From Thermoplasmatota archaeon (lineage in GTDB: Archaea; Thermoplasmatota; Penumbrarchaeia; Penumbrarchaeales; Penumbrarchaeaceae): a stretch of DNA of 19,054 nt. Every line of letters begins with the position of its first letter. The stretch's first letter is position 1. Position numbers and translations under genes: made by a program. Shown one piece after another: positions 1,143 to 18,991 of the stretch. The stretch lies in NCBI GenBank assembly GCA_965234725.1, contig CBDDUX010000061.1:1-19054 (forward strand). Reading direction: 5' to 3'. The notes under the pieces were generated by a model, which worked only from the letters and a program-made list of their open reading frames with translations, was not told the origin of the DNA and did no database searches.

Positions 1143-2849
1143 TCATCTCTTTCTGGTAAGGACCAGTATGCAAATCATTGCAACGGCTCCGAGTGCAACA
1201 AGGACCGATCCGATCCCTGCAGCCCAGACCCATGTGGAGGAGAGTATGGATCCTGCATCCTTGGTCGAGGTTTCCTCATTGGATGTGGGCATGATATTGA
1301 TCATATCATCATTGTCGTCTATCTCCTCAGATACCTCGCCATCCTCTTCTTCAGGGTCCTCTTCATCCTTTACCATTGGAGGTACCTGGTCCCTTGTGAA
1401 GGAGAATCCTCCAAGATGATATTCGGTGTAGGAATATCCCCAAAGGTTCTGATCCTCGACTATCCTCTTGTGGTAGTCCTGCCAAAGAGGCTGATATACC
1501 TCTCCTTCATTATCCACAAAGACAGGTATGATGTGCCTTATCAAAGTATGAGGATCGAACCTGGAATTGTCCTGGACCTCGGTTTCTGTTACATCTGAGG
1601 TGGTCTGGATGACATCGTCATTGTCATTTTCCTCAAGGATCCCTCTGTAGTTCCTCTTCTGGAAATGAGAGCTTCCTTCGGCAATTAGGGCGACCTGGGT
1701 ATCCCTTGCTCTGTAGGGGTATCCATCAATATTGATCTTGATACCTCCAGCCTGGGGTATGACCGAACCGTCCTCTCCATAGTATGCTCGGATCCCTATG
1801 CGGAAGTTGATGGTCCCATGGATGTCCTCTATACCAAAGGCAATGTGGAATCCATCCGATGTGAAGTTCTCCTGAATGACCTTCAATGGTTTCAGGTAGG
1901 CTTTTGGTCTCCTGACAGGTGTTTCTTCCGGGAGCATCTCGGGATCTTTGTCCGATCCCTTATCTTTCTCGTCTTCTTTTATCCTGTTTGGATCCTTCTC
2001 TGTGTTTGATGGTCTTTCCACTGTATCGTTATAGAAAGTCCTCTCAACATTCACATCATCATCCACATCATTTTCGACCCCATAAGCATCCCTGTATCCG
2101 TCATGGATGCCGGTTCTGAGCCCTTCAATGAATCCCTTGACAAAGGACCGAAGAACATTCTCATCGCCAGCATCTCTGTCTGTTATCTTATCCATCTGTT
2201 CCTGGATCAATGCTTTGACCCTTTCAAGGATCTCATCAGGCATATTCTCGAAAGGGTCATCCGAATATGGAAGGCCATTCTCTATACCATATATACCGAC
2301 CTTCATACCGATATCATATCCAAGATCGTATCCCTTCTGGTATCCTTTCCTGTATGCTTCCTTGTCCAGTTCAGGCTCCTTGGGTTCCACCTGTTTTATG
2401 TAACCAAGAGTATAGAGTCTGTCTGATAGGGGAACATGTGAAACGACCTTGTCAACAAGCGGGTCGAACTCGTTGTTGTTGTTCATGTCCTTGAACTCCA
2501 CCAAGCCATAGAAATTCACCTTTACACCAAGATCGACAGATCCCTTCGGACTGTATTTTCCCATATCTACCGTAAGCGAGGGTCCCTGCATGGACCTCAG
2601 ATCGAATTTGAAGTACGATCCGCTGTTCTCATCAGAGACCTTGTTGATAAGATAGGAATGGTACAAACCTCTGTCGTACTCGAAGTGGTATCCCTCGTTT
2701 GCAACCGGATTGGTGTTGGGATCCACCTTTTCTTTGTCCAATTCTCTCTTTTCATCCTCCCGGGCCGATGCCCAGGTTGCACCGATCGAAAGCGACATCA
2801 CGAGAAGCGCTGTCAAGGCGATAAGTGCGATCTTTCTTGATGGTCTCAT
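1143..2849 (-). CDS. Secreted, C-terminally membrane-anchored surface protein with GxxxG repeats
   Basis: Likely start is ATG 2849 (MRPSRKIALIALTALLV, signal peptide) after a GGTGA SD. It has FYGLVEFKDMNNNNEFD, two glycine-repeat blocks (KGYQKGYDLGYDIGMKVG; KGFIEGLRTGIHDG), an acidic linker, and a C-terminal hydrophobic helix with a TRKR tail. Confidence 0.85.
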   Translation of the reverse strand: MRPSRKIALIALTALLVMSLSIGATWASAREDEKRELDKEKVDPNTNPVANEGYHFEYDRGLYHSYLINKVSDENSGSYFKFDLRSMQGPSLTVDMGKYSPKGSVDLGVKVNFYGLVEFKDMNNNNEFDPLVDKVVSHVPLSDRLYTLGYIKQVEPKEPELDKEAYRKGYQKGYDLGYDIGMKVGIYGIENGLPYSDDPFENMPDEILERVKALIQEQMDKITDRDAGDENVLRSFVKGFIEGLRTGIHDGYRDAYGVENDVDDDVNVERTFYNDTVERPSNTEKDPNRIKEDEKDKGSDKDPEMLPEETPVRRPKAYLKPLKVIQENFTSDGFHIAFGIEDIHGTINFRIGIRAYYGEDGSVIPQAGGIKINIDGYPYRARDTQVALIAEGSSHFQKRNYRGILEENDNDDVIQTTSDVTETEVQDNSRFDPHTLIRHIIPVFVDNEGEVYQPLWQDYHKRIVEDQNLWGYSYTEYHLGGFSFTRDQVPPMVKDEEDPEEEDGEVSEEIDDNDDMINIMPTSNEETSTKDAGSILSSTWVWAAGIGSVLVALGAVAMICILVLTRKR

Positions 2850-2879
2850 TGTCTCACCATAGAAAACCACCAGCTGATG

Positions 2880-3037: not shown

Positions 3038-3847
3038 ATGATAAAGAAAGAGAATATCGGAAATATGATAGTAACAGGAAAATCCGGAGCTGGAAAGCAA
3101 CCCAGAATAGATGTGCTCGTAAATGAATTTGGCCTTGAGCAGTTATCCACGGGGAATATCTTTAGGGAATATGTCGGTGCTTTTGACGGATCTGGATTCA
3201 AAGGGGATCTTGAAAGGTTCTATGATGCTGAAAATGATACGTTCGTTCCGGATGAGGAAATTGAAAATGCCATCAAGGAACAGCTCCCTGATGTCGAGGA
3301 GGTCCGACCTGTCCTCCTCGGTCTGAAGGCAAAGTACTTCATGAACTCAGGGAAGTTCGTCCCCAATAACTCCACAAACGAACTTTTCACCGAATACTTC
3401 TCCAAGAAGGATTACAGGGGATACGTTCTGGACGGATACCCCAGGACCCCGGACCAGGCAGAGTATCTGCTGGAACTTGTCAAGGAGAAAGGTGTCTCGA
3501 TTGACATGGTCATACTAGTCAACAACTCTGACAAGAATATCATCCAAAGGACAATAGGAAGAAGGATATGCCCTTCCTGCAAGAAAGTCTACCATGTTGA
3601 ACATAAACCATCCAAGGACAATGTCCACTGCGATGTATGCGGTGCAGAGCTGATCTTAAGGTCCGATGACACCGAGAACAAGATCAAGGTCCGCCTGGCA
3701 GAGTTCTACGCTAAAGTGATACCTTGTCTGACCATTCTTGAAAACGAGGGCATCCCCATACTTACCGTTGAAGGGAATCTTGAAGAGTTCACCGAAGAGA
3801 ACGTCAGAAGGTCTGTCATGGAAAAAGTAGAACCCCTACTTGAATAG
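3038..3847 (+). CDS. adk: Adenylate kinase (bacterial-type, Zn-binding LID), atypical P-loop
   Basis: Motifs GKSGAGK, LSTGNIFRE, YVLDGYPRTPDQA, RRICPSC..CDVC (LID) and RSDD. Start is probably ATG 3038 after AGGTG. Confidence 0.85.
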   Translation: MIKKENIGNMIVTGKSGAGKQPRIDVLVNEFGLEQLSTGNIFREYVGAFDGSGFKGDLERFYDAENDTFVPDEEIENAIKEQLPDVEEVRPVLLGLKAKYFMNSGKFVPNNSTNELFTEYFSKKDYRGYVLDGYPRTPDQAEYLLELVKEKGVSIDMVILVNNSDKNIIQRTIGRRICPSCKKVYHVEHKPSKDNVHCDVCGAELILRSDDTENKIKVRLAEFYAKVIPCLTILENEGIPILTVEGNLEEFTEENVRRSVMEKVEPLLE

Positions 3848-4660
3848 GTCCGACACCAGGGCTCTCAGGTCCTTGTATACCATCAATCCCTCTTCTTCCG
3901 GGTCCTCCATATCCCCGGAGAGGACCATTGCTACCTGGCATCCGGCCCTTCTTCCCGCAGTGATATCGGTATCCAGTCTGTCACCGATCATCAGGATGTC
4001 CTTCGGTTCGATACCGATCTCAATGGAAGCGAGTCTTGTTGTGTATGGATCCGGTTTTCCCACCACCGTCGCTTTTACTCCGGTACACGTTTCAAGGGCT
4101 GAGATCATGGTCCCGGCCCCGGGAAGTACCTTCCCTCCCTCCCATGGAAGGGTGGGATCAGAATTGGTAGCTATGAGGTCAGCTCCGTTCCTGATGGCCC
4201 AGAGTGCGTCTGCCAGTCTTGTATACGTTAGGGTCCTGTCCAGGCCTGCAACAACACAATCCACCTCAAGGTCGTTCAATGGCTCTCCAGCATCACCTGT
4301 CCAGGCAGCATTTTCCAGGGAGGCTATACCTCTCCCTTCGCCTGCAGGAACAGCCTCGTGACCTATCCTGTTCAACTCCTGAATAAGGCCCCTTTCACCG
4401 ACAACGAGGCATCTGGAAGGTCCCATCTTCTCCAGAATATATCTGGCAGCGCCATAGGAGGATGTGATCACAGGAGCTGTTGGATAACCAAAGCATTCGA
4501 GAGAGAACATCACCTCGCCTCTGGTCCTGGTGGAATTATTCGTCAGGTAGCAGATCGAGATACCTGCATCTAAAAGATCAGAAACGGCTTGTACGGATCC
4601 AGGGACAGCTTCACCTCCCCTCTTCAGAACACCATCCAGATCCAGGATCGCTCCCTTCAT
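3836..4660 (-). CDS. HAD-IIA hydrolase, NagD/pNPPase family
   Basis: Motifs DLDGVL, LTNNS, ATNSD, GKPD and GDRLDTDI. Confidence 0.92.
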   Translation of the reverse strand: MKGAILDLDGVLKRGGEAVPGSVQAVSDLLDAGISICYLTNNSTRTRGEVMFSLECFGYPTAPVITSSYGAARYILEKMGPSRCLVVGERGLIQELNRIGHEAVPAGEGRGIASLENAAWTGDAGEPLNDLEVDCVVAGLDRTLTYTRLADALWAIRNGADLIATNSDPTLPWEGGKVLPGAGTMISALETCTGVKATVVGKPDPYTTRLASIEIGIEPKDILMIGDRLDTDITAGRRAGCQVAMVLSGDMEDPEEEGLMVYKDLRALVSDLFK

Positions 4661-5343
4661 CGAAATCCTTCCTTCATAAGATAAAAGGCAGAACTGATAT
4701 CTTGAACTATCGCATCGGGGTACCTGGGATCACCATGTCCGATCCCTTCGTTAATCATGGTCTCTATCTGGGAATTCCCTCTTCCTGTAGTTACAAGGAT
4801 CCCCTTGCACCCTGCCGTATGGGCAGCGAGGATATCCTTGAGGTGATCACCTATCATTATGGATGATCCCAGGTCGAGGTCCAGATCATGAGCCGCTCTC
4901 AGGATCATCCCGGGTCCTGGTTTTCTGTCCAAATGGTCCACATCATATTCAGGTATGATCGAACCCGGAAAGAAGGGGGAATAATATGCCAGGTCCCAGG
5001 GTTCCAAAGGTGACATAGTATTTCGTATGTATTCCATCGTAGATATCAGGTGGGAATGTTCTATTAGACCCATTCCAATTGCTCCCTGGTTCGTGGCCAC
5101 TGCTATCCTGAAACCCAATGACCTGAATCCTTCGATGGCCTCTTTGGCCCCGTCAATGATCCGAGGTTCATGCTTGAAATGAATGGGGTCCCTATCCTCT
5201 ATGATAACTCCATCTCTATCAAGGATCACAGCTCTGAAATTGCCGGACCTTCCCGGTTCACCGTATATGGTCCTCTCATCGGATTCTGGAACCAGGGAGA
5301 GGGCTTCCATCCTTTTTCGGACATCCTGTCCGGGATGCTTCAT
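4657..5343 (-). CDS. HAD-IIIA phosphatase, GmhB/histidinol-phosphatase family
   Basis: Motifs LDRDGVI, ATNQ, RKPGPGM and IGDHLKD. ATGA overlaps with both neighbours. Confidence 0.9.
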   Translation of the reverse strand: MKHPGQDVRKRMEALSLVPESDERTIYGEPGRSGNFRAVILDRDGVIIEDRDPIHFKHEPRIIDGAKEAIEGFRSLGFRIAVATNQGAIGMGLIEHSHLISTMEYIRNTMSPLEPWDLAYYSPFFPGSIIPEYDVDHLDRKPGPGMILRAAHDLDLDLGSSIMIGDHLKDILAAHTAGCKGILVTTGRGNSQIETMINEGIGHGDPRYPDAIVQDISSAFYLMKEGFR

Positions 5344-7699: not shown

Positions 7700-7828
7700 T
7701 TATGATGAGATCATCCTTTGGAGGTATTTTCTTTCTTCTTCTAATGTCATACCTTCAATATCTTTACTTATCTTGTCTCTGATATCCCTCATCATTTTAA
7801 CTGAATCGAATTTTTTGGTTCTACTCAT
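7700..7828 (-). CDS. 42-aa putative antitoxin/partner of the PIN protein
   Basis: Not in the ORF track. Translates as MSRTKKFDSVKMMRDIRDKISKDIEGMTLEEERKYLQRMISS*. It overlaps the PIN stop by 8 nt (ATGAGTAG) and has GAGGT upstream. Confidence 0.75.
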   Translation of the reverse strand: MSRTKKFDSVKMMRDIRDKISKDIEGMTLEEERKYLQRMISS

Positions 7829-8285
7829 ATCCAACAACCTCCCATGGAGATCTGATCTCAACCGTGCCATATCCCTTCTTGATATTCACAGAATTATATC
7901 CTCTGATTCTTTCAATGTTGACTATATGTTTAAAGTTCCAGCTGATTATGATATCAGCTTTTACCACCGTAGCAATTGCGATATGCTGTGAGTCAGCAAG
8001 AAATCTTTTCGAAATCACCTTTTCTTTCAAATATATCCTGGATAGTTCATTTGATTCTTCGGTGAGCGTTACTTCTTCAATGAATTCTTCTGGGATCTTT
8101 TCCATAACCTGCCTGACCTTTATCGGAGCTTTGGAAAGTTCTGCTCTGGTAATATCAGAAATTACTGTGATCTTTCGCCCTTCAGAAAATTCCTTGATCA
8201 GTAAATTGGATGCGTTCTTGAATTCATCATCCAGGCAACCTCCTATCACGGAGGTATCGATGTAATATCTTTCTTTCTTGGTCAT
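7821..8285 (-). CDS. PIN-domain (VapC-like) ribonuclease toxin
   Basis: PIN motifs YIDTSVIGG, ITRAEL, DSQHIAIA and SWNFKHIVN. Confidence 0.9.
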   Translation of the reverse strand: MTKKERYYIDTSVIGGCLDDEFKNASNLLIKEFSEGRKITVISDITRAELSKAPIKVRQVMEKIPEEFIEEVTLTEESNELSRIYLKEKVISKRFLADSQHIAIATVVKADIIISWNFKHIVNIERIRGYNSVNIKKGYGTVEIRSPWEVVGYE

Positions 8286-13023: not shown

Positions 13024-14349
13024 GTGATAGTGACATCCAAGATGATCTTCAAGAGGATGGGAGCAGGACGGTTTATTGCATTTTTGACATTGCTATCCTT
13101 GTTATTTGTTCTGATCTCAACATTGGTTCCAGAAGTCCTTTCAGAATTAAACAAGACATATTCGGACGGAGAATGTGAGACATGTCATACAGAATTCGAA
13201 CCCTTCATCACACAAGTTGATTCTCCAACAGAAGTACCGGAGACCATGGAGTTTGAATTTGGATTGCTTGTACAAAATCCATGGGCCCATGAATTGAACG
13301 ATCTTGTATTGACTGTTAATCTGGCTGAATCACCAGGTCTTGAATTCTTTGGGATGGAACCTCAGGAACCTATTGATATGACTGAAACTGGAATTGTCCC
13401 TGCAAGAGGTTCCTCAACTGGGGAGGTGATGATATCTTCCTCTGTTGAGGAGATAAGATTGAATCTTGACTGGAATAGACCCATATTGTTCACAGGTGAA
13501 TTGGAACTTTCATTCATTGGTGAAAATAAAGTATGGACCGAATCTTCGACAGATGAGATCATCATCGATGGAGACGAGATAAGTGAAACGGAGTATGGCC
13601 CTTATCGGTGGATGATAGAGAACACAGGGCCGGCCCGGTCAGTGGACTTCACCATCGAAATCGAGATAGATTTCTCAAGTGATTATAAGATATTCTCTAC
13701 CTATGTTTCAACCATTGAGCCAGGGAAATCAGGGACCATCAAATTACCCCTTATGTCCATTGGGAAAAGTGAAAATATTGTTTCATACGAACTGGAAGTA
13801 ATAGCACATCATGATCATTCGGAGGATGAGACAGATTCCGACACTTACACAACAACCGGGTCATATTCCATTGAAGTTGGAGATGAGTTAAAATACTCCA
13901 GACCGAAGGAGATAGTTACGGTCTCTACTTCATTATGGATTGTTGGCAGGGTCCTTGGTTTCGTAACCGTAGCCCTATTCATTGGATCATTCCTTTCAGG
14001 AGTGAACATCACCCCTTTACAAAGATGGATCGATAACAAGACAAAGGACAGAAAAAGATGGCACTGTGTGATATCCTTTGCAGTCATCATTTCCGTAATA
14101 ATCCATTTTTCAGTACTATACGCCGGATATTATTCCAACACATATAAGGGTCTGATAACAGGAGGATTACCTCTCATTCTGATGATCCTATTGGGAGTAA
14201 CAGGGTACTGGCAGAAACAGATAATAATAAGGATAGGACATCAAAAATGGAAAAGAATACACTTCTGGCTTTCCATTATTGTTATCTTGTTGTTCATTTT
14301 CCATGGTATAGAAGAGGGAACTGACCTCGCATTTCTTAGGTGGTGGTGA
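13024..14349 (+). CDS. Putative monoheme c-type cytochrome fused to acidic beta-rich domains and a C-terminal 4-TM cytochrome-b/ferric-reductase-like domain
   Basis: N-terminal hydrophobic helix, CETCH at 13174-13188 and HHDH. The C-terminal TMs carry His in KRWH, IIHF, KRIHFW and IFHG. The true start may be 13042 or 13057. Confidence 0.7.
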   Translation: MIVTSKMIFKRMGAGRFIAFLTLLSLLFVLISTLVPEVLSELNKTYSDGECETCHTEFEPFITQVDSPTEVPETMEFEFGLLVQNPWAHELNDLVLTVNLAESPGLEFFGMEPQEPIDMTETGIVPARGSSTGEVMISSSVEEIRLNLDWNRPILFTGELELSFIGENKVWTESSTDEIIIDGDEISETEYGPYRWMIENTGPARSVDFTIEIEIDFSSDYKIFSTYVSTIEPGKSGTIKLPLMSIGKSENIVSYELEVIAHHDHSEDETDSDTYTTTGSYSIEVGDELKYSRPKEIVTVSTSLWIVGRVLGFVTVALFIGSFLSGVNITPLQRWIDNKTKDRKRWHCVISFAVIISVIIHFSVLYAGYYSNTYKGLITGGLPLILMILLGVTGYWQKQIIIRIGHQKWKRIHFWLSIIVILLFIFHGIEEGTDLAFLRWW

Positions 14350-14756
14350 AAATATCCCATTCACTTGATTCGTGGTTGTTGTATATCCATCCTCCTCTGG
14401 CGATCATCGGGTATCTGTTGACATTCACTCTTCTATTCACTTTACTAAGGTATAGAAATGACAAAGGGTACAAGAAAATAGTGTCAAGGGTAGGGATAAC
14501 TGCTTGGATATTCAACTTTCTTGGGCTTGTCACAGGAATGATATGGGCCCAGATAGCATGGGGGAGGCCGTTTGCATTCGATCCCAAGGAAACCTTCACT
14601 TTGCTTGTTTTCCTCTCCGTGGGTCTGAATTTGTATCTGTTTTATAGAAAGATGGAGATGAAATGGATCCTTATTAATGGTCTAATAAGCTGTATATTGA
14701 TAATATTGACGATCATCGTTCCGCTTCTGTTGAGCTCTATTCACGGTTATGTATAG
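14340..14756 (+). CDS. Minimal cytochrome c assembly (CcsA/CcmF-like WWD-domain) protein
   Basis: Motifs IHPPLAIIGY, GMIWAQIAWGRPFAFDPKET and C-terminal SIHGY; four hydrophobic segments; overlaps the upstream stop. Confidence 0.85.
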   Translation: MVVKISHSLDSWLLYIHPPLAIIGYLLTFTLLFTLLRYRNDKGYKKIVSRVGITAWIFNFLGLVTGMIWAQIAWGRPFAFDPKETFTLLVFLSVGLNLYLFYRKMEMKWILINGLISCILIILTIIVPLLLSSIHGYV

Positions 14757-14800: not shown

Positions 14801-16033
14801 ATGAGGATATGCATCATAACATCAGAATATCCGCCCAAATGGGGTGGAGTGGGCGTGGTGGCCTATTATCTTTCCACATGGATGGCAAAAAGAGGTCACG
14901 AGGTCCATGTTGTTACCAGAAGCCAGAACATCGGTTACAAGTCCTCTCACTCCAACATCAGTATCCATCCGGTCAAGTGGCTGAAAGCTCCCATGGTCTT
15001 CACCCTATCATTTGGTAAGAACGCCATGAAATGGATGGAAAAATCCGGATTGGATTTTGATATCGTCCATATCCACTCGAACATGGCACTCATCCCAAGA
15101 AATTACTACAAAAGGTCCAAGGTCCCCATCGTATCGACCATGCACGGGACCTGGAAAGGGGAAAGGTCGACCATTTCATTGAAGCATGTATCCCCTTCGA
15201 TCTCTGGTATAAATGACCTTTCGGTAATGATGCTGGGTCCTTTCATGGACAGGTATGAGGACAATGCATTGAGATATTCAAATGGTGTTATCACCATCTC
15301 CAATTCCGAATGCAGGGCCCTTGCCAGGAGAGGTGTGAAAAACAAGTACGATAGGAGGATACACCTTCAAAATGGCATAGATACCCAGGAGTTCTCCCCT
15401 GAGAACTTCGATCCCGGATTGAAGAGCAGATACTCCATTGCTGAAGGGAACAGGATAATTGTCAGCGTTGGGAGGTGGGCGGCAAGGAAGGGCATCAGGG
15501 AGATGCTGCAGGTCTTCAAGGAAATGAACGGAAGGAGGAAGGACCTGACCTTCTTTCTGGTAGGATGGGGGCCCATGGAAGGAGAGATCAGGAGAAAAAG
15601 ATCAGCGTTCGGTCTGGAGGATAACCTGATCCTGCTGAAGTCTCCTGACCATTCCGAGATGCAGAAACTGGTAGCGACTGCGGACCTTGCCATGTTCCAT
15701 TCTTACTGGGAAGGATACGGTCTGACATTCGGCGAGGCTCTCGCATCGGGGACACCCTGCGTTCTCACGGATGTTGGGGGTGCCTCGGAGATGTGTGTCG
15801 AGGGAACCGGAAGGCTGGTCAAGGTAGGAGATATCAAAGGTCAGGCCGATTCGGCTCTGGAACTCCTTTCAAGGGATGACCTTGATGAGTGGGGTAAACG
15901 TGGCAGGGAGCACATATTGAAATACTGCTCTTGGAACGATATTGCAGAAAGGACAGAAGGGTTCTACAGGTGGGTAGTAGAGGACCCGGAGAACAAGGAC
16001 GGTTGGAGAGATGGTTTCAATAGATGCCCATAG
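14801..16033 (+). CDS. Glycosyltransferase family 4 (GT-B)
   Basis: Motifs EYPP..GGVG, GHEVHVVT, NGID, VGRWAARKG and EGYGLTFGEALASG (E-x7-E). Confidence 0.93.
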   Translation: MRICIITSEYPPKWGGVGVVAYYLSTWMAKRGHEVHVVTRSQNIGYKSSHSNISIHPVKWLKAPMVFTLSFGKNAMKWMEKSGLDFDIVHIHSNMALIPRNYYKRSKVPIVSTMHGTWKGERSTISLKHVSPSISGINDLSVMMLGPFMDRYEDNALRYSNGVITISNSECRALARRGVKNKYDRRIHLQNGIDTQEFSPENFDPGLKSRYSIAEGNRIIVSVGRWAARKGIREMLQVFKEMNGRRKDLTFFLVGWGPMEGEIRRKRSAFGLEDNLILLKSPDHSEMQKLVATADLAMFHSYWEGYGLTFGEALASGTPCVLTDVGGASEMCVEGTGRLVKVGDIKGQADSALELLSRDDLDEWGKRGREHILKYCSWNDIAERTEGFYRWVVEDPENKDGWRDGFNRCP

Positions 16034-16096
16034 TAACCTGCAATATCCAATGGATACGGATATTAAGGAAGTTCCCGATAGTCACCGGAGAACATA

Positions 16097-18991
16097 TTGG
16101 GCAGGCGTGTTCAGGAATTGATCGGTCATCATGTCCTGAATAACCTGGTCAGGCAGGTGGGTCCATTGCCAGAGGAAGGTTCAGAGATCAGCAATATCCG
16201 ATCATCGGAAATTGAAGATGTTCTGAAAGATCTGGTATCATCGACCAATGGCCTTTCCCATGAAGAAGCCCGGAAACGGCTACTACGTGACGGCCCCAAT
16301 GAGATACCCACGATACGAAGGAGCTTCCTGGCAAGAGTGGCCCACCAGATATTCGATTTTGTGATCATTTTACTTCTTGGGATCGCACTTGTCCTCGCAC
16401 TGCTTGCATTTTTATTCCCTGACAATGGCTCCACATCCTTTCAGACCTCGATAGCTATTGTCGGTGTGATCGTCCTGAGCTGGGTCCTGATAATTTTCCA
16501 GATGTATTCTGCCGAGCGATCCCTGGATGCTCTCAGGAAGGTCGGAGCCCCAAGGGCGAAGGTCAAGAGGGATGGCAAATGGATCGAGGTCCCGACCAGG
16601 GAACTCGTCCAGGGTGATATTGTAATGCTGGGAGAGGGAGACAGGATCCCGGCCGATGGAAGGATCATTTCAAGCGTCCGTTTGTCAGTGGATGAATCTT
16701 CCCTTACGGGAGAATCCGTTAACGTCGAAAAAGTAGTGAGACCCCTAAAGATCAAGGATCCCTCCCTCCATGAAATGATCAATATGGTTTTCATGTCAAC
16801 TGTGGTGGCAAGGGGAAGCGGTGAAGCTGTCATCACCGGAGTGGGACAGAGAACAGAATTGGGAAAGATCGCCAAAGGGATCAAAGAGGCCCCTGAACCT
16901 GAGATCCCGCTTCAAAAGAAGATGAGCCAGCTTGCCAGGACCTTTTCTCTGATAATGCTGGTCCTTGTCCTTGTCCTAACATTGATACAGATGTTCAGGC
17001 TATATCTGAAGGACGATCTTGTAATGGATTCTATCATTGAACTTCTTGTCAATTCAGTGATCCTGAGCGTTGTTGCCGTTCCCTGGAGCTTCCCTATCAT
17101 CACGACCTCTGTCATGGCAAGAGGCATGATATATCTGGTCAAGGACAATGCGATAGTCAGAAGGGTCGCATCCATCGAGGGATTGGGAAGGGTCTCTGTG
17201 ATCTGTTCGGACAAGACAGGGACCATGACCCAGAACGCCATGACGGTAAGGACGGTCTATCATGACGGCAGATATCGGACTGTAACAGGAACTGGTTACG
17301 GACCGAAGGGAATGATCGAAGGTATTGATATTAAAGATAGGACTGAAAAGGGCGGTTTCCTTAAGCTGATGATCCGATCAGGATCTCTTAACAACGATGC
17401 CAGGTTAGTCAATGATGGGGAAGGATGGAAGGTCCTTGGAGATCCCACTGAAGGAGCTCTTAAGACACTTGCAATGAAAGCGGGTATCGAAGAGGATTTG
17501 AACAAAGGGAAAGTGGTCAGGGAGATACCTTTCGACTCAGACAGAAGGATGATGACAAAGGTTTTCGAAACCCCTGATGGTGTCTTCGTCCATTCCAAGG
17601 GCGGCTTCGAGGTCATGATCGAAAAGTGCGATAGAACGATCTTGAACGGCAGGTCGGTCCCGATGTCGGCGGTTCAAAGGGAAGCTATTGAAAAGGCAAA
17701 TCATGAAGTGAATATGAAGGCCGAGAGAACCCTGGCCTTTGCTTACAAGAATATCGATATCCCCTTGAAGGAATTGGTTGAGATGGATGACGGGGAGATC
17801 GAGAAAGGTCTTGTCTTCCTGGGATTCGTGGGTATGATGGACCCTCCAAAGGAAGGCGTCCGGGAGGCTGTCAGTAAATGTCGCGAAGCCGGGATCAAGG
17901 TTGTCATGATCACCGGGGACAGTATGGGGACGGCAACTGCAATAGCATCCGACCTGGGAGTAATGAAGAAAGGTGACCTTGTGCTCGAAGGGAGCGATCT
18001 GCCGGTATCCGATGATGTCCTGGACAAGGTCAGTGTTTTCTGCAGGGTCTCGCCGGATCAAAAGGTCGATATTGTCACAGCCTATCGTAAAAAGGGCAGC
18101 ATCATTGCCATGACCGGGGATGGTATGAACGATGCCGCGGCCCTGAAGAACGCTGATGTAGGTGTGGCAATGGGAATGAGCGGTGTGGATGTGGCAAAAG
18201 AGGCTTCTCAGATCATACTTTCTGACGATAATTTCGCCACACTGGTCACAGCAGTTCACAGGGGGAGGCAGATATTCGACAATATCAGAAAAAGCATAAC
18301 TTATCAGATATACACGAATCTCTCGGAACTGTCTATCATGTTCATAGGTTCCCTTCTGTTCGTAGATCAGATGATGAGCGAGAAGCATCTTCTTTTCCTG
18401 TATTTTTCCACACATCTATTCCCGGTGGCGGCCCTTGTACTTGACAGGACCACCGCAGGTGTGATGAAGGAGCCTCCAAGGGATGCCAAGGAAGGAATAG
18501 TGTCCTCCAAGGTGATCGGTAAACTGGGGTTGATGATAGCCACCATGGCAATTATCGCTCTTTCCATGTTCTATCTACTTGATGGGAATTTCATCGATAT
18601 AGGGATCAAGGGGGATGGAGAGGAGACCATACAGACCATGATACTCACCTTTGTCGTATGGGCCGAGTGTATCAACCTCTTCAACAGCCTTTCAATGAAA
18701 GACTCGCTGATAACTCAGATCAGAGAGAGGAGCATGCTTCTCTCGGTCCTAATGGCCTCGATACCCGTGGGGGCACTTACCTTCTGCATGTATTTCAGAG
18801 GGTTCGGTGATGCCATGGACCTCTCCGCCCTCACACCGCTCCAGTATTCGATCTCGGTCCTGTCCGGTCTTGCCATTATTCCTGTTGTGGAGTTGTTCAA
18901 GGTCTACGTGAGAGGGTCCTACGGAAGATCGAGAGGGATCGAAAGGGGGCCGAAAAGGAAAATGGAGATAAGAATTAGGCAAGGTAATTAA
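16097..18991 (+). CDS. P-type ATPase, P2A-like scaffold with non-canonical transport-site residues
   Basis: TTG start after GGAG. Motifs DESSLTGES, CSDKTGT, GDPTE, FDSDRRMM, KG, DPP, MITGD and TGDGMNDAAALK. TM4 reads AVPWSFP. Confidence 0.95.
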   Translation: MGRRVQELIGHHVLNNLVRQVGPLPEEGSEISNIRSSEIEDVLKDLVSSTNGLSHEEARKRLLRDGPNEIPTIRRSFLARVAHQIFDFVIILLLGIALVLALLAFLFPDNGSTSFQTSIAIVGVIVLSWVLIIFQMYSAERSLDALRKVGAPRAKVKRDGKWIEVPTRELVQGDIVMLGEGDRIPADGRIISSVRLSVDESSLTGESVNVEKVVRPLKIKDPSLHEMINMVFMSTVVARGSGEAVITGVGQRTELGKIAKGIKEAPEPEIPLQKKMSQLARTFSLIMLVLVLVLTLIQMFRLYLKDDLVMDSIIELLVNSVILSVVAVPWSFPIITTSVMARGMIYLVKDNAIVRRVASIEGLGRVSVICSDKTGTMTQNAMTVRTVYHDGRYRTVTGTGYGPKGMIEGIDIKDRTEKGGFLKLMIRSGSLNNDARLVNDGEGWKVLGDPTEGALKTLAMKAGIEEDLNKGKVVREIPFDSDRRMMTKVFETPDGVFVHSKGGFEVMIEKCDRTILNGRSVPMSAVQREAIEKANHEVNMKAERTLAFAYKNIDIPLKELVEMDDGEIEKGLVFLGFVGMMDPPKEGVREAVSKCREAGIKVVMITGDSMGTATAIASDLGVMKKGDLVLEGSDLPVSDDVLDKVSVFCRVSPDQKVDIVTAYRKKGSIIAMTGDGMNDAAALKNADVGVAMGMSGVDVAKEASQIILSDDNFATLVTAVHRGRQIFDNIRKSITYQIYTNLSELSIMFIGSLLFVDQMMSEKHLLFLYFSTHLFPVAALVLDRTTAGVMKEPPRDAKEGIVSSKVIGKLGLMIATMAIIALSMFYLLDGNFIDIGIKGDGEETIQTMILTFVVWAECINLFNSLSMKDSLITQIRERSMLLSVLMASIPVGALTFCMYFRGFGDAMDLSALTPLQYSISVLSGLAIIPVVELFKVYVRGSYGRSRGIERGPKRKMEIRIRQGN

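Follow-up and report, generated by a model that had tools for sequence, protein, structure and literature searches.

A P2-like ATPase of a Thermoplasmatota archaeon with a conserved, remodelled transport site: candidate member of an apparently undescribed, Asgard-centred pump family

P-type ATPases fall into a small number of families, whose cargo is set by family-specific signatures in transmembrane helices 4 to 6 (TM4-TM6). The stretch of DNA analysed here (the window; 19,054 nt, 47% guanine plus cytosine, GC), from contig CBDDUX010000061.1 of a Thermoplasmatota archaeon, encodes a P-type ATPase with intact catalytic motifs and the overall fold of P2A Ca2+ pumps, in which the side chains of calcium site II are all replaced. 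The altered site is conserved among the close relatives of the pump, and it recurs in what is apparently an undescribed P2-like family centred on Asgard archaea. We give a probability of about 0.5 to the reading that the protein is a working E1/E2 pump of P2A type that would export one small cation other than Ca2+ from the cytoplasm in each cycle; a new substrate class, as proposed in a preliminary description of the gene, is possible.

The gene and its catalytic motifs are arranged as follows, with residues counted throughout from the TTG at 16097:

16097..18991, forward strand: P-type ATPase open reading frame (ORF), 964 codons from the first TTG, stop included, with no internal stop
16166..16168, forward strand: probable true start, TTG (residue 24), giving a 941-aa protein
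16706..16717, forward strand: TGES (residues 204-207), the A-domain dephosphorylation motif, intact
17210..17224, forward strand: DKTGT with the phospho-acceptor D372, intact
17912..17920, forward strand: TGD at residue 606, within MITGD, intact
18116..18133, forward strand: GDGMND hinge motif at residue 674, intact

The start at residue 24 is the one used by the database copy of the protein (P0002, 941 aa), which, like most homologues, begins there with M-P; an AGGTGG at 16155-16160 lies 5 nt 5' of this TTG. The ORF contains the full Pfam domain set of a P2-type pump (Cation_ATPase_N, E1-E2_ATPase, Cation_ATPase, Hydrolase and Cation_ATPase_C), and the combination of DKTGT with TGES, TGD and GDGxND identifies the product as a member of the P-type superfamily. 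In all 13 full-length copies of the locus from related genomes (see below) the frame is likewise open and the catalytic motifs are kept, the sole deviation being at the variable position of GDGxND in one of them (L008). The preliminary description had reported all four motifs as intact, and both this statement and every motif coordinate that it gave were reproduced. The GC content of the pump gene (~0.49, against a window mean of 0.47) presents no compositional anomaly hinting at recent transfer.

The departures from known pumps are concentrated in the membrane domain:

16478..16507, forward strand: TM2 SWVLIIFQMY (residues 128-137), with S128, W129 and I132 for the usual N, A and G, and M136 for the usual E
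17081..17092, forward strand: TM4 PWSF (residues 329-332) in place of PEGL, with W330 at the position of SERCA E309
18317..18328, forward strand: TM5 N741 to E744, retained, at the positions of SERCA N768/E771
18401..18415, forward strand: TM6 YFSTH (residues 769-773), with Y769, T772 and H773 at the positions of SERCA N796, T799 and D800
18665..18667, forward strand: TM8 E857, probably at the position of SERCA E908, invariant across the family

These correspondences were established by alignment to solved pumps. In the alignment with the Listeria Ca2+-ATPase, AIPEAL pairs with AVPWSF and INLVND with LYFSTH, and the interval from TM4 to DKTGT, where 42 residues separate W330 from D372, is free of gaps. 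Residues 747-833 of SERCA1a (1iwo_A) align with residues 720-806 of the query over equal lengths, pairing N741 with N768, E744 with E771, Y769 with N796, T772 with T799 and H773 with D800, and the alignment with Na,K-ATPase gives the same pairing for TM5 and TM6. The TM5 and TM6 equivalences and the W330-D372 spacing proposed in the preliminary description are therefore upheld. The equivalence of E857 and E908 is probable; it is backed by a MAFFT column in which the PEGL pumps have E or Q and by an HMMER stretch that was not significant.

Both TM signatures of P2A Ca2+-ATPases are thus absent: PWSF, aligned to the Listeria PEAL, stands where the TM4 PEGL with its gating Glu would be, and Y769 and H773 occupy the positions of the TM6 Asn and Asp (N796/D800). 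All side chains of site II (the equivalents of E309, N796 and D800) are replaced, and the space of the site is filled by Trp330, Tyr769 and Phe332. In this respect, as in the alteration of TM2, the preliminary description was correct. What it overlooked is that four of the five ligands of site I are kept (N741, E744, T772 and E857), Asp800 alone being changed, to His773; the conserved pocket is composed of two Glu, one His, Asn, Thr and Ser. These four ligands are also invariant among the close relatives; the pocket keeps the character of an ion site and does not resemble a flippase groove.

To assess how widely the altered site is shared, 7,988 candidates from a search of 5.8 billion proteins were scored, and the best 120 were listed and aligned with the query by MAFFT. 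Among these, 24 proteins (P0002-P0025) are 61-100% identical to the query, those with a named organism all being from Thermoplasmatota, and beyond them identity falls to 42% or less. Within this group, the PWSF clade, PWSF is present in all 24 rows covering TM4 and Y(F/Y)STH in all 24 covering TM6; TM5 reads YQ(I/L)YTN..(E/D) in every covering row, with Asp in one (P0009), and the TM8 Glu is likewise found wherever that helix is covered. The altered residues are thus invariant in every member covering them, at overall identities of 61-70%, and a close relative with PEGL and N..TD, which by the preliminary description would have refuted its reading, was not encountered. The other 96 listed proteins all have P-E at TM4. 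A separate scan for the TM4 motif, with one genome per species, yielded 14 loci (counts below are given over 15 sources), every one titled Thermoplasmatota or Thermoplasmatales. Among the copies of the pump, that of L005 is 90% identical to the window protein, and the others are 62-70% identical to it. The TM5 and TM6 motifs, which lay outside the scan pattern, are kept across the 14 loci despite many synonymous codon differences, with four codons in use for Thr772 and two for His773. The codon for Ser331 is AGC or AGT in 14 of the 15 sources, one transition away from the Asn AAY of the sister groups. Since the altered site is kept in all 24 rows and its motifs persist through synonymous change in the 14 loci, it is not the product of drift; strain-specific drift and assembly error are ruled out by the clade-wide PWSF/YFSTH, the synonymous codon changes and the open, full-length copies.

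The pump is not an isolated case, a point that the preliminary description overlooked; it belongs to a wider family whose other members are Asgard pumps. In a search of 1.84 billion cluster representatives, in which the PWSF clade is a single representative, the next match (P0122; 41% identity, 662 bits) stood clearly above the bulk at ~570 bits. We examined 150 rows, comprising the query, P0017 and 148 further representatives. TM4 is P-E in 135 of these and PSGL in one, and the remaining 14 have P-(W/I/F/V/L)-(N/S)-(F/I/L); His occupies the D800 position in 14 of the 150, and altered TM4 and TM6 His occur together in 12 printed family representatives and both PWSF rows. In a profile built from the 12 representatives (A1), E744, H773, E857 and the TM4 Asn are invariant, and its search against a large protein database returned 49 top rows with the same signature. 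All 17 organism-named rows among the 49 are from Asgard archaea, under the names Promethearchaeota, Lokiarchaeota/Lokiarchaeia, Hermod-, Odin-, Heimdall- and Helarchaeota, and Harpocratesius. One protein listed by this search, P0319 from Promethearchaeum syntrophicum, is an ordinary PEGL/NLVTD pump. A look-up in a protein atlas gave a P-type, Promethearchaeota-rich cluster as the nearest one. The window protein carries the full signature of this TM6-His family, namely TM4 P-hydrophobic-(N/S)-hydrophobic-P, His at the D800 position and Glu in TM5 and TM8, and, as far as named records show, the family appears confined to Asgard archaea and one Thermoplasmatota lineage.

Phylogenetic analysis separated the family from ordinary pumps. 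In a FastTree phylogeny of 63 rows, the family as a whole, with the PWSF clade and a PWNF trio (Promethearchaeota and Helarchaeota) in it, was split from the PEGL pumps with support of 100. The same split was recovered with a Shimodaira-Hasegawa approximate likelihood-ratio support of 100 by IQ-TREE from 46 rows (22 family, 24 PEGL) after the site columns of TM2, 4, 5, 6 and 8 had been removed and 872 columns kept. The pump, whose phylogenetic placement had been proposed as a check in the preliminary description, thus falls on the non-PEGL side in both trees. The order of branching among the PWSF clade, the PWNF trio and the remaining family was not settled by IQ-TREE, and a long stem, of 0.58-0.66 changes per column, leads to the PWSF clade.

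A comparison of motifs in 58 family members with those of PEGL pumps (162 of 163 comparison proteins having the TM4 Glu) distinguished two layers of change. Across the family, relative to the 162 PEGL pumps, E330 is switched to a hydrophobic residue, G331 to N or S, D773 to H, T270 to I and S365 to R; H773 is present in 58 of 58 members, against D in 94% of the 162. Confined to the PWSF clade are S128, W129, I132, V326, W330, F332, I334, Q737, Y739, F767, Y769 and F770, together with short inserts in the TM1-2 and TM5-6 loops. Asgard members have I, F, V or L at position 330, small residues in TM6 and QQY or QQF in TM2, where the window protein has QMY and QEY is usual.

Two peripheral features of the PWSF clade were also observed. 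The TM1-TM2 loop contains an insert, F-P-x-N-x-S-T-S-F (16412-16444, residues 106-116), that is absent from ordinary pumps, and 17 of 19 clade members have an N-x-S sequon within it, possibly an external N-glycosylation site. A C-terminal extension of ~50-130 residues, conserved and with an amphipathic R-F-S-R-F-F ... F-Q-R-L-N-D-M-P, is found in 13 of 18 other printed clade members (P0003-P0013, P0017 and P0019, the non-carriers being P0014-P0016, P0018 and P0020) and may be a regulatory tail; the window protein does not have it and ends in a short basic tail.

Profile scores and structure agree in placing the protein within the P2 pumps, in support of the P2-derived origin suggested in the preliminary description. 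The sole NCBIfam model passed was the generic P-type TIGR01494 (291.4 against a cut-off of 62.3). All Ca2+-pump equivalogs were missed, as the scores against cut-offs for PMR1 (494.4/798.3), SERCA (451.6/703.4) and PMCA (422.8/507) show, and so were the P4 flippase model TIGR01652 (116.2 bits against 431), the P5 model TIGR01657 (189.5 against 618), the P3A model TIGR01647 (327.2 against 615.5) and the P1B profiles (128-216 bits, under their cut-offs). P5 ATPases have a double-proline motif in TM4, where the window protein has VPWSFP. The same models, applied to 10 family members and 8 PEGL controls, gave the following ranges:

PMR1-type model: family 436-522 bits, PEGL controls 695-774 bits
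P4 flippase model: family 89-147 bits (one member under the listing threshold), PEGL controls 75-125 bits
P5 model: family 198-285 bits, PEGL controls 228-265 bits

The best sequence matches in the PDB are Ca2+ pumps, with expectation values (E) from 1e-133, for the Listeria Ca2+-ATPase, to 1e-105. A confident AlphaFold 2 (AF2) model computed from a 118-row alignment (predicted local distance difference test score 89.9, predicted template modelling score 0.88) breaks its helices at the site residues, TM4 being unwound at 328-331 and TM6 at 772-774; unwound stretches of TM4 and TM6 are where P2 pumps build their ion sites. The best Foldseek matches of this model were SPCA1, the Listeria Ca2+-ATPase (LMCA1) and SERCA, with TM-scores of up to 0.77/0.83 and E down to 3e-61, which identifies the overall fold as P2A. 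The 50 best matches consisted of SPCA1, the Listeria pump, SERCA and the Na,K- and H,K-ATPases, with no P4, P5, P3 or P1B pump among them. Kinship with P4 or P5 ATPases was rejected on scores level with those of the PEGL controls and on the lack of P4 or P5 pumps among these 50 structures.

The combined observations lead us to propose a mechanism in which calcium site II would be abolished throughout the family, by exchange of the TM4 gating Glu for a hydrophobic residue (Trp330 here) and of the TM6 Asn for an aromatic or aliphatic one (Tyr769 here). A single buried pocket, inherited from calcium site I, would then be left, formed by Glu744 and Asn741 of TM5, Thr772 of TM6 and Glu857 of TM8, and would have gained a new polar residue near the TM4 proline, Ser331 here and Asn in Asgard members. 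The family-invariant His773, in place of the bridging Asp, could either coordinate the cargo or, when the site is empty, supply a built-in counter-charge, and one small cation other than Ca2+ would be carried out of the cytoplasm in each cycle. The invariant buried Glu/Glu/His set points to an ion site rather than a lipid groove. Ca2+ is made less likely by the absence of its two site II ligands and by the missing acidic residues at the TM2 entry. As to the cargo, our guess would be a divalent transition metal (Mn2+, Fe2+, Zn2+, Co2+ or Ni2+) in the first place, because two carboxylates and an imidazole suit such metals, and H+ or a monovalent cation in the second. There are precedents for parts of this scheme: extracts of PMC10654040 describe a transmembrane His acting as an internal counter-ion in a solved P1B-4 pump, and a P6/CtpE family that has no TM6 Asp and still pumps an ion.

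Several observations weigh against a small-cation pump of this kind. Thr772 and Asn741 vary in Asgard members, so the pocket may differ across the family, and the equivalence of E857 with E908 is weakly supported. The additional aromatic residues round the site in the Thermoplasmatota branch (W129, W330, F332, Y739, F767, Y769 and F770) would suit an organic cation too. The conserved neighbours of the gene are concerned with sugar metabolism, not with ions; no metal-homeostasis genes were found near the pump in the window or in related loci, Rfam gave no match of any kind, and hence no metal riboswitch, either in the window or in 15900-16300 at E up to 1, and the tails are basic or amphipathic, with none rich in His or Cys for metal binding.

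A more far-reaching reading is that the TM6-His pumps would constitute a new P-type family on a par with P1-P6 that moves, on a calcium-pump scaffold, a cargo not known from any P2 pump (a transition metal, an organic cation or a membrane glycoconjugate), and that Thermoplasmatota would have acquired the pump from Asgard archaea and remodelled it further through Trp330 and the aromatic lining. We put this forward tentatively, as a possibility well short of even odds; if it is true, the family, centred as it is on the archaeal relatives of eukaryotes, might shed light on how the TM4 Glu is lost as pumps turn to non-ion cargo.

Transport of Ca2+ (or Mg2+) after all, with the ion held by the retained site I ligands as the database name 'Ca2+-transporting ATPase' would have it, is unlikely. 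The nearest solved and profiled relatives are indeed Ca2+ pumps, N741, E744, T772 and E857 offer the oxygen ligands that Ca2+ site I has passed on, and P6/CtpE, which has no TM6 Asp, is reported in the extracts of PMC10654040 to move Ca2+. However, the TM4 Glu and the TM6 Asp of site II are both lost here, whereas all 162 PEGL comparison proteins retain the Glu and 94% retain the Asp; the scores lie far under every Ca2+-pump cut-off (494/798, 452/703 and 423/507), and imidazole is, by general chemistry, a poor Ca2+ ligand. To our knowledge, site II, with its TM4 Glu and TM6 Asp, is the site used by every characterised single-site Ca2+ pump (PMCA, SPCA and the Listeria pump). The Ca2+-ATPase label is, on this evidence, probably wrong for the TM6-His family.

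Next comes an organic cation, such as a polyamine or an ammonium-type compound, which we consider rather doubtful as well. It would be bound through cation-pi contacts with the added aromatics and through Glu744 and Glu857, in the manner of a P5B polyamine pump, though on a P2 scaffold. The seven aromatic residues gained in the Thermoplasmatota branch surround two retained carboxylates, and the cytoplasmic entry loses its acids in TM2, QEY becoming QMY here and QQY or QQF in Asgard members. Yet the aromatic enrichment is limited to this branch, the Asgard members having aliphatic residues or Phe at 330 and small ones in TM6; the P5 model is missed by a wide interval (189.5 against 618), the family scoring no higher than the controls, and polyamine genes were found neither nearby in the window nor in related loci.

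That the pump would translocate a lipid or a lipid-linked sugar (a glycolipid or a polyprenyl-phosphate sugar), with Trp330 as a flippase-like hydrophobic gate and with a glycosyltransferase (GT4) and an epimerase as partners, is improbable. P4 flippases have PISL in TM4, DGET in the A domain and a Lys in TM5; PWSF resembles the first of these in its hydrophobic residue after the proline and in the Ser at +2. In 13 of 15 sources the pump gene is immediately preceded by a GT4 gene of the same orientation, and in 10 loci it has a gene for an NAD-dependent sugar epimerase downstream. On the other side, TGES stands in the A domain where flippases have DGET, P-x-x-x-P retains its second proline as in P2 and P3 pumps, and the buried Glu/Glu/His set is invariant. 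The P4 model scored 116 against 431 with no enrichment over the PEGL controls, and no flippase was present among the 50 best structural matches, so that the flippase-like gate advanced in the preliminary description is not borne out; a retuned ion site fits the evidence better than a flippase-like mechanism. Synteny is also conserved more widely, and the adjacency may be inherited order; the named GT4 relatives are all from Thermoplasmatota (9/9 among the matches listed) and give no hint that GT4 travelled with the Asgard-related pump.

Finally, a non-transporting protein, either a decaying pump or one converted to a sensor or regulator, might be imagined from the loss of both the classical gating and bridging ligands, but it is very improbable given intact catalytic motifs, a frame open in 13 full-length loci, site residues invariant under saturating synonymous change and a family that spans several archaeal phyla.

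The immediate surroundings of the pump gene are conserved, as follows for the upstream neighbour:

14801..16033, forward strand: GT4 glycosyltransferase, directly upstream of the pump

Where GT4 does not adjoin the pump, it lies elsewhere in the locus (L007) or is absent from the available 0.9 kb upstream (L012). Its best NCBIfam match is BshA, at 141.8 bits against a cut-off of 273.7. The epimerase gene downstream often follows one for a PF06695 membrane protein; the window itself ends 63 nt past the stop codon of the pump. Gene order is conserved across loci well beyond the pump on both sides, so the adjacency of GT4 and pump may reflect inherited gene order, and GT4 is best regarded as conserved context, with at most a putative functional link to the pump. 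Co-transfer of GT4 with the pump left no sign, the organism-named GT4 relatives among the 120 listed being Thermoplasmatota in nine of nine cases and none of them Asgard. In L005, which has the gene order of the window, the genes downstream of the pump, for the PF06695 membrane protein and the epimerase, are broken into two ORFs apiece; the breaks may be frameshifts or assembly indels.

Further upstream, a gene at 13024-14349 (forward strand) encodes a 441-aa membrane protein with one CxxCH haem-binding motif in its N-terminal region and a weak DUF4405/ferric-reductase-like C-terminal membrane domain, and it overlaps by 10 nt the gene at 14340-14756 (forward strand) for a 138-aa CcsA/CcmC-like haem-handling protein; the two may form a minimal cytochrome c maturation pair, and in 7 loci the 441-aa protein is again encoded upstream of the pair formed by GT4 and pump. 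Between 8636 and 12900, an ornithine cyclodeaminase gene lies between genes for two BNR/sortilin-like secreted proteins, one of them with a PKD domain and a membrane anchor at its C-terminus. This block is whole in the window and L005 only and partial in L003, indicative of an insertion relative to the other related loci. A 154-aa ORF at 7821-8285 (reverse strand) has no Pfam match and an N-terminus that is PIN-like by eye only. Short overlaps at 3836-3847, 4657-4660 and 5340-5343 join genes for an adenylate kinase, two HAD-family phosphatases and a membrane protein, and this tightly packed block is conserved in 7-10 related loci. At the beginning of the window, 1-978 and 1143-2870 (both reverse strand) encode paralogous acidic signal-peptide proteins with repeated G-Y-x-x-G-Y-D-x-G-like stretches; their lone match, to Yae1_N, is sub-threshold, and a related protein is present in L010. 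The window contains no transfer RNA genes.

In the literature, P6 is presented in Palmgren's 2023 review (PMC10654040) as the sole P-type family added since 1998, with further prokaryotic families expected. A term search of that article for 'Asgard', 'Lokiarchae' and 'Thermoplasma' gave no occurrences. In extracts of a survey of Asgard transporters (PMC7997004), the P2-type ATPases of Asgard proteomes are treated as orthologues of a putative Ca2+-ATPase and as a basis for Ca2+ signalling, and the extracts of PMC7016017 do not treat the TM6-His family. No description of the family was found in full-text literature searches, and it may already carry a TCDB 'uncharacterised family' number. Finding the cargo of the family would correct Ca2+-ATPase annotations and test how far the P2 scaffold can be retuned.

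Compared with known systems, the pump is closest to the P2A Ca2+-ATPases (LMCA1, SPCA1/PMR1 and SERCA), with which it shares the ten-helix P2 architecture, the N- and C-terminal cation-ATPase domains, the catalytic motifs, the TM5 N..E, the TM8 Glu and the best matches in sequence and fold. It differs from them in the exchange of the TM4 Glu for Trp and of the TM6 Asn and Asp for Tyr and His, in its altered TM2, in scores under all equivalog cut-offs and in lying on the opposite side of a support-100 branch from the PEGL pumps. With P4 flippases it has in common the hydrophobic residue after the TM4 proline and the Ser at +2 of PISL, whereas its TGES, its second TM4 proline, the absence of a TM5 Lys and the acidic residues buried in TM5 and TM8 set it apart. 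P3A H+-ATPases have a hydrophobic residue at the E309 position and a protonatable TM6 Asp at the D800 position; the pump resembles them in the former and in having one protonatable residue at the latter, but that residue is His instead of Asp, there is no TM5 Arg and TIGR01647 is missed at 327/615. P1B-4 metal pumps, described in the extracts of PMC10654040, are alike in using a transmembrane His as internal counter-ion or ligand, but they belong to another topology class and have no sequence kinship with the pump beyond the superfamily. P6, represented by mycobacterial CtpE in the same extracts, is alike as a prokaryotic P2-like family that has lost the TM6 Asp; compared by description, PEGL is retained in P6 and the Asp is replaced by Ile, whereas PWSF and His are found here, and P6 is reported from bacteria, whereas the TM6-His family is archaeal (PMC10654040).

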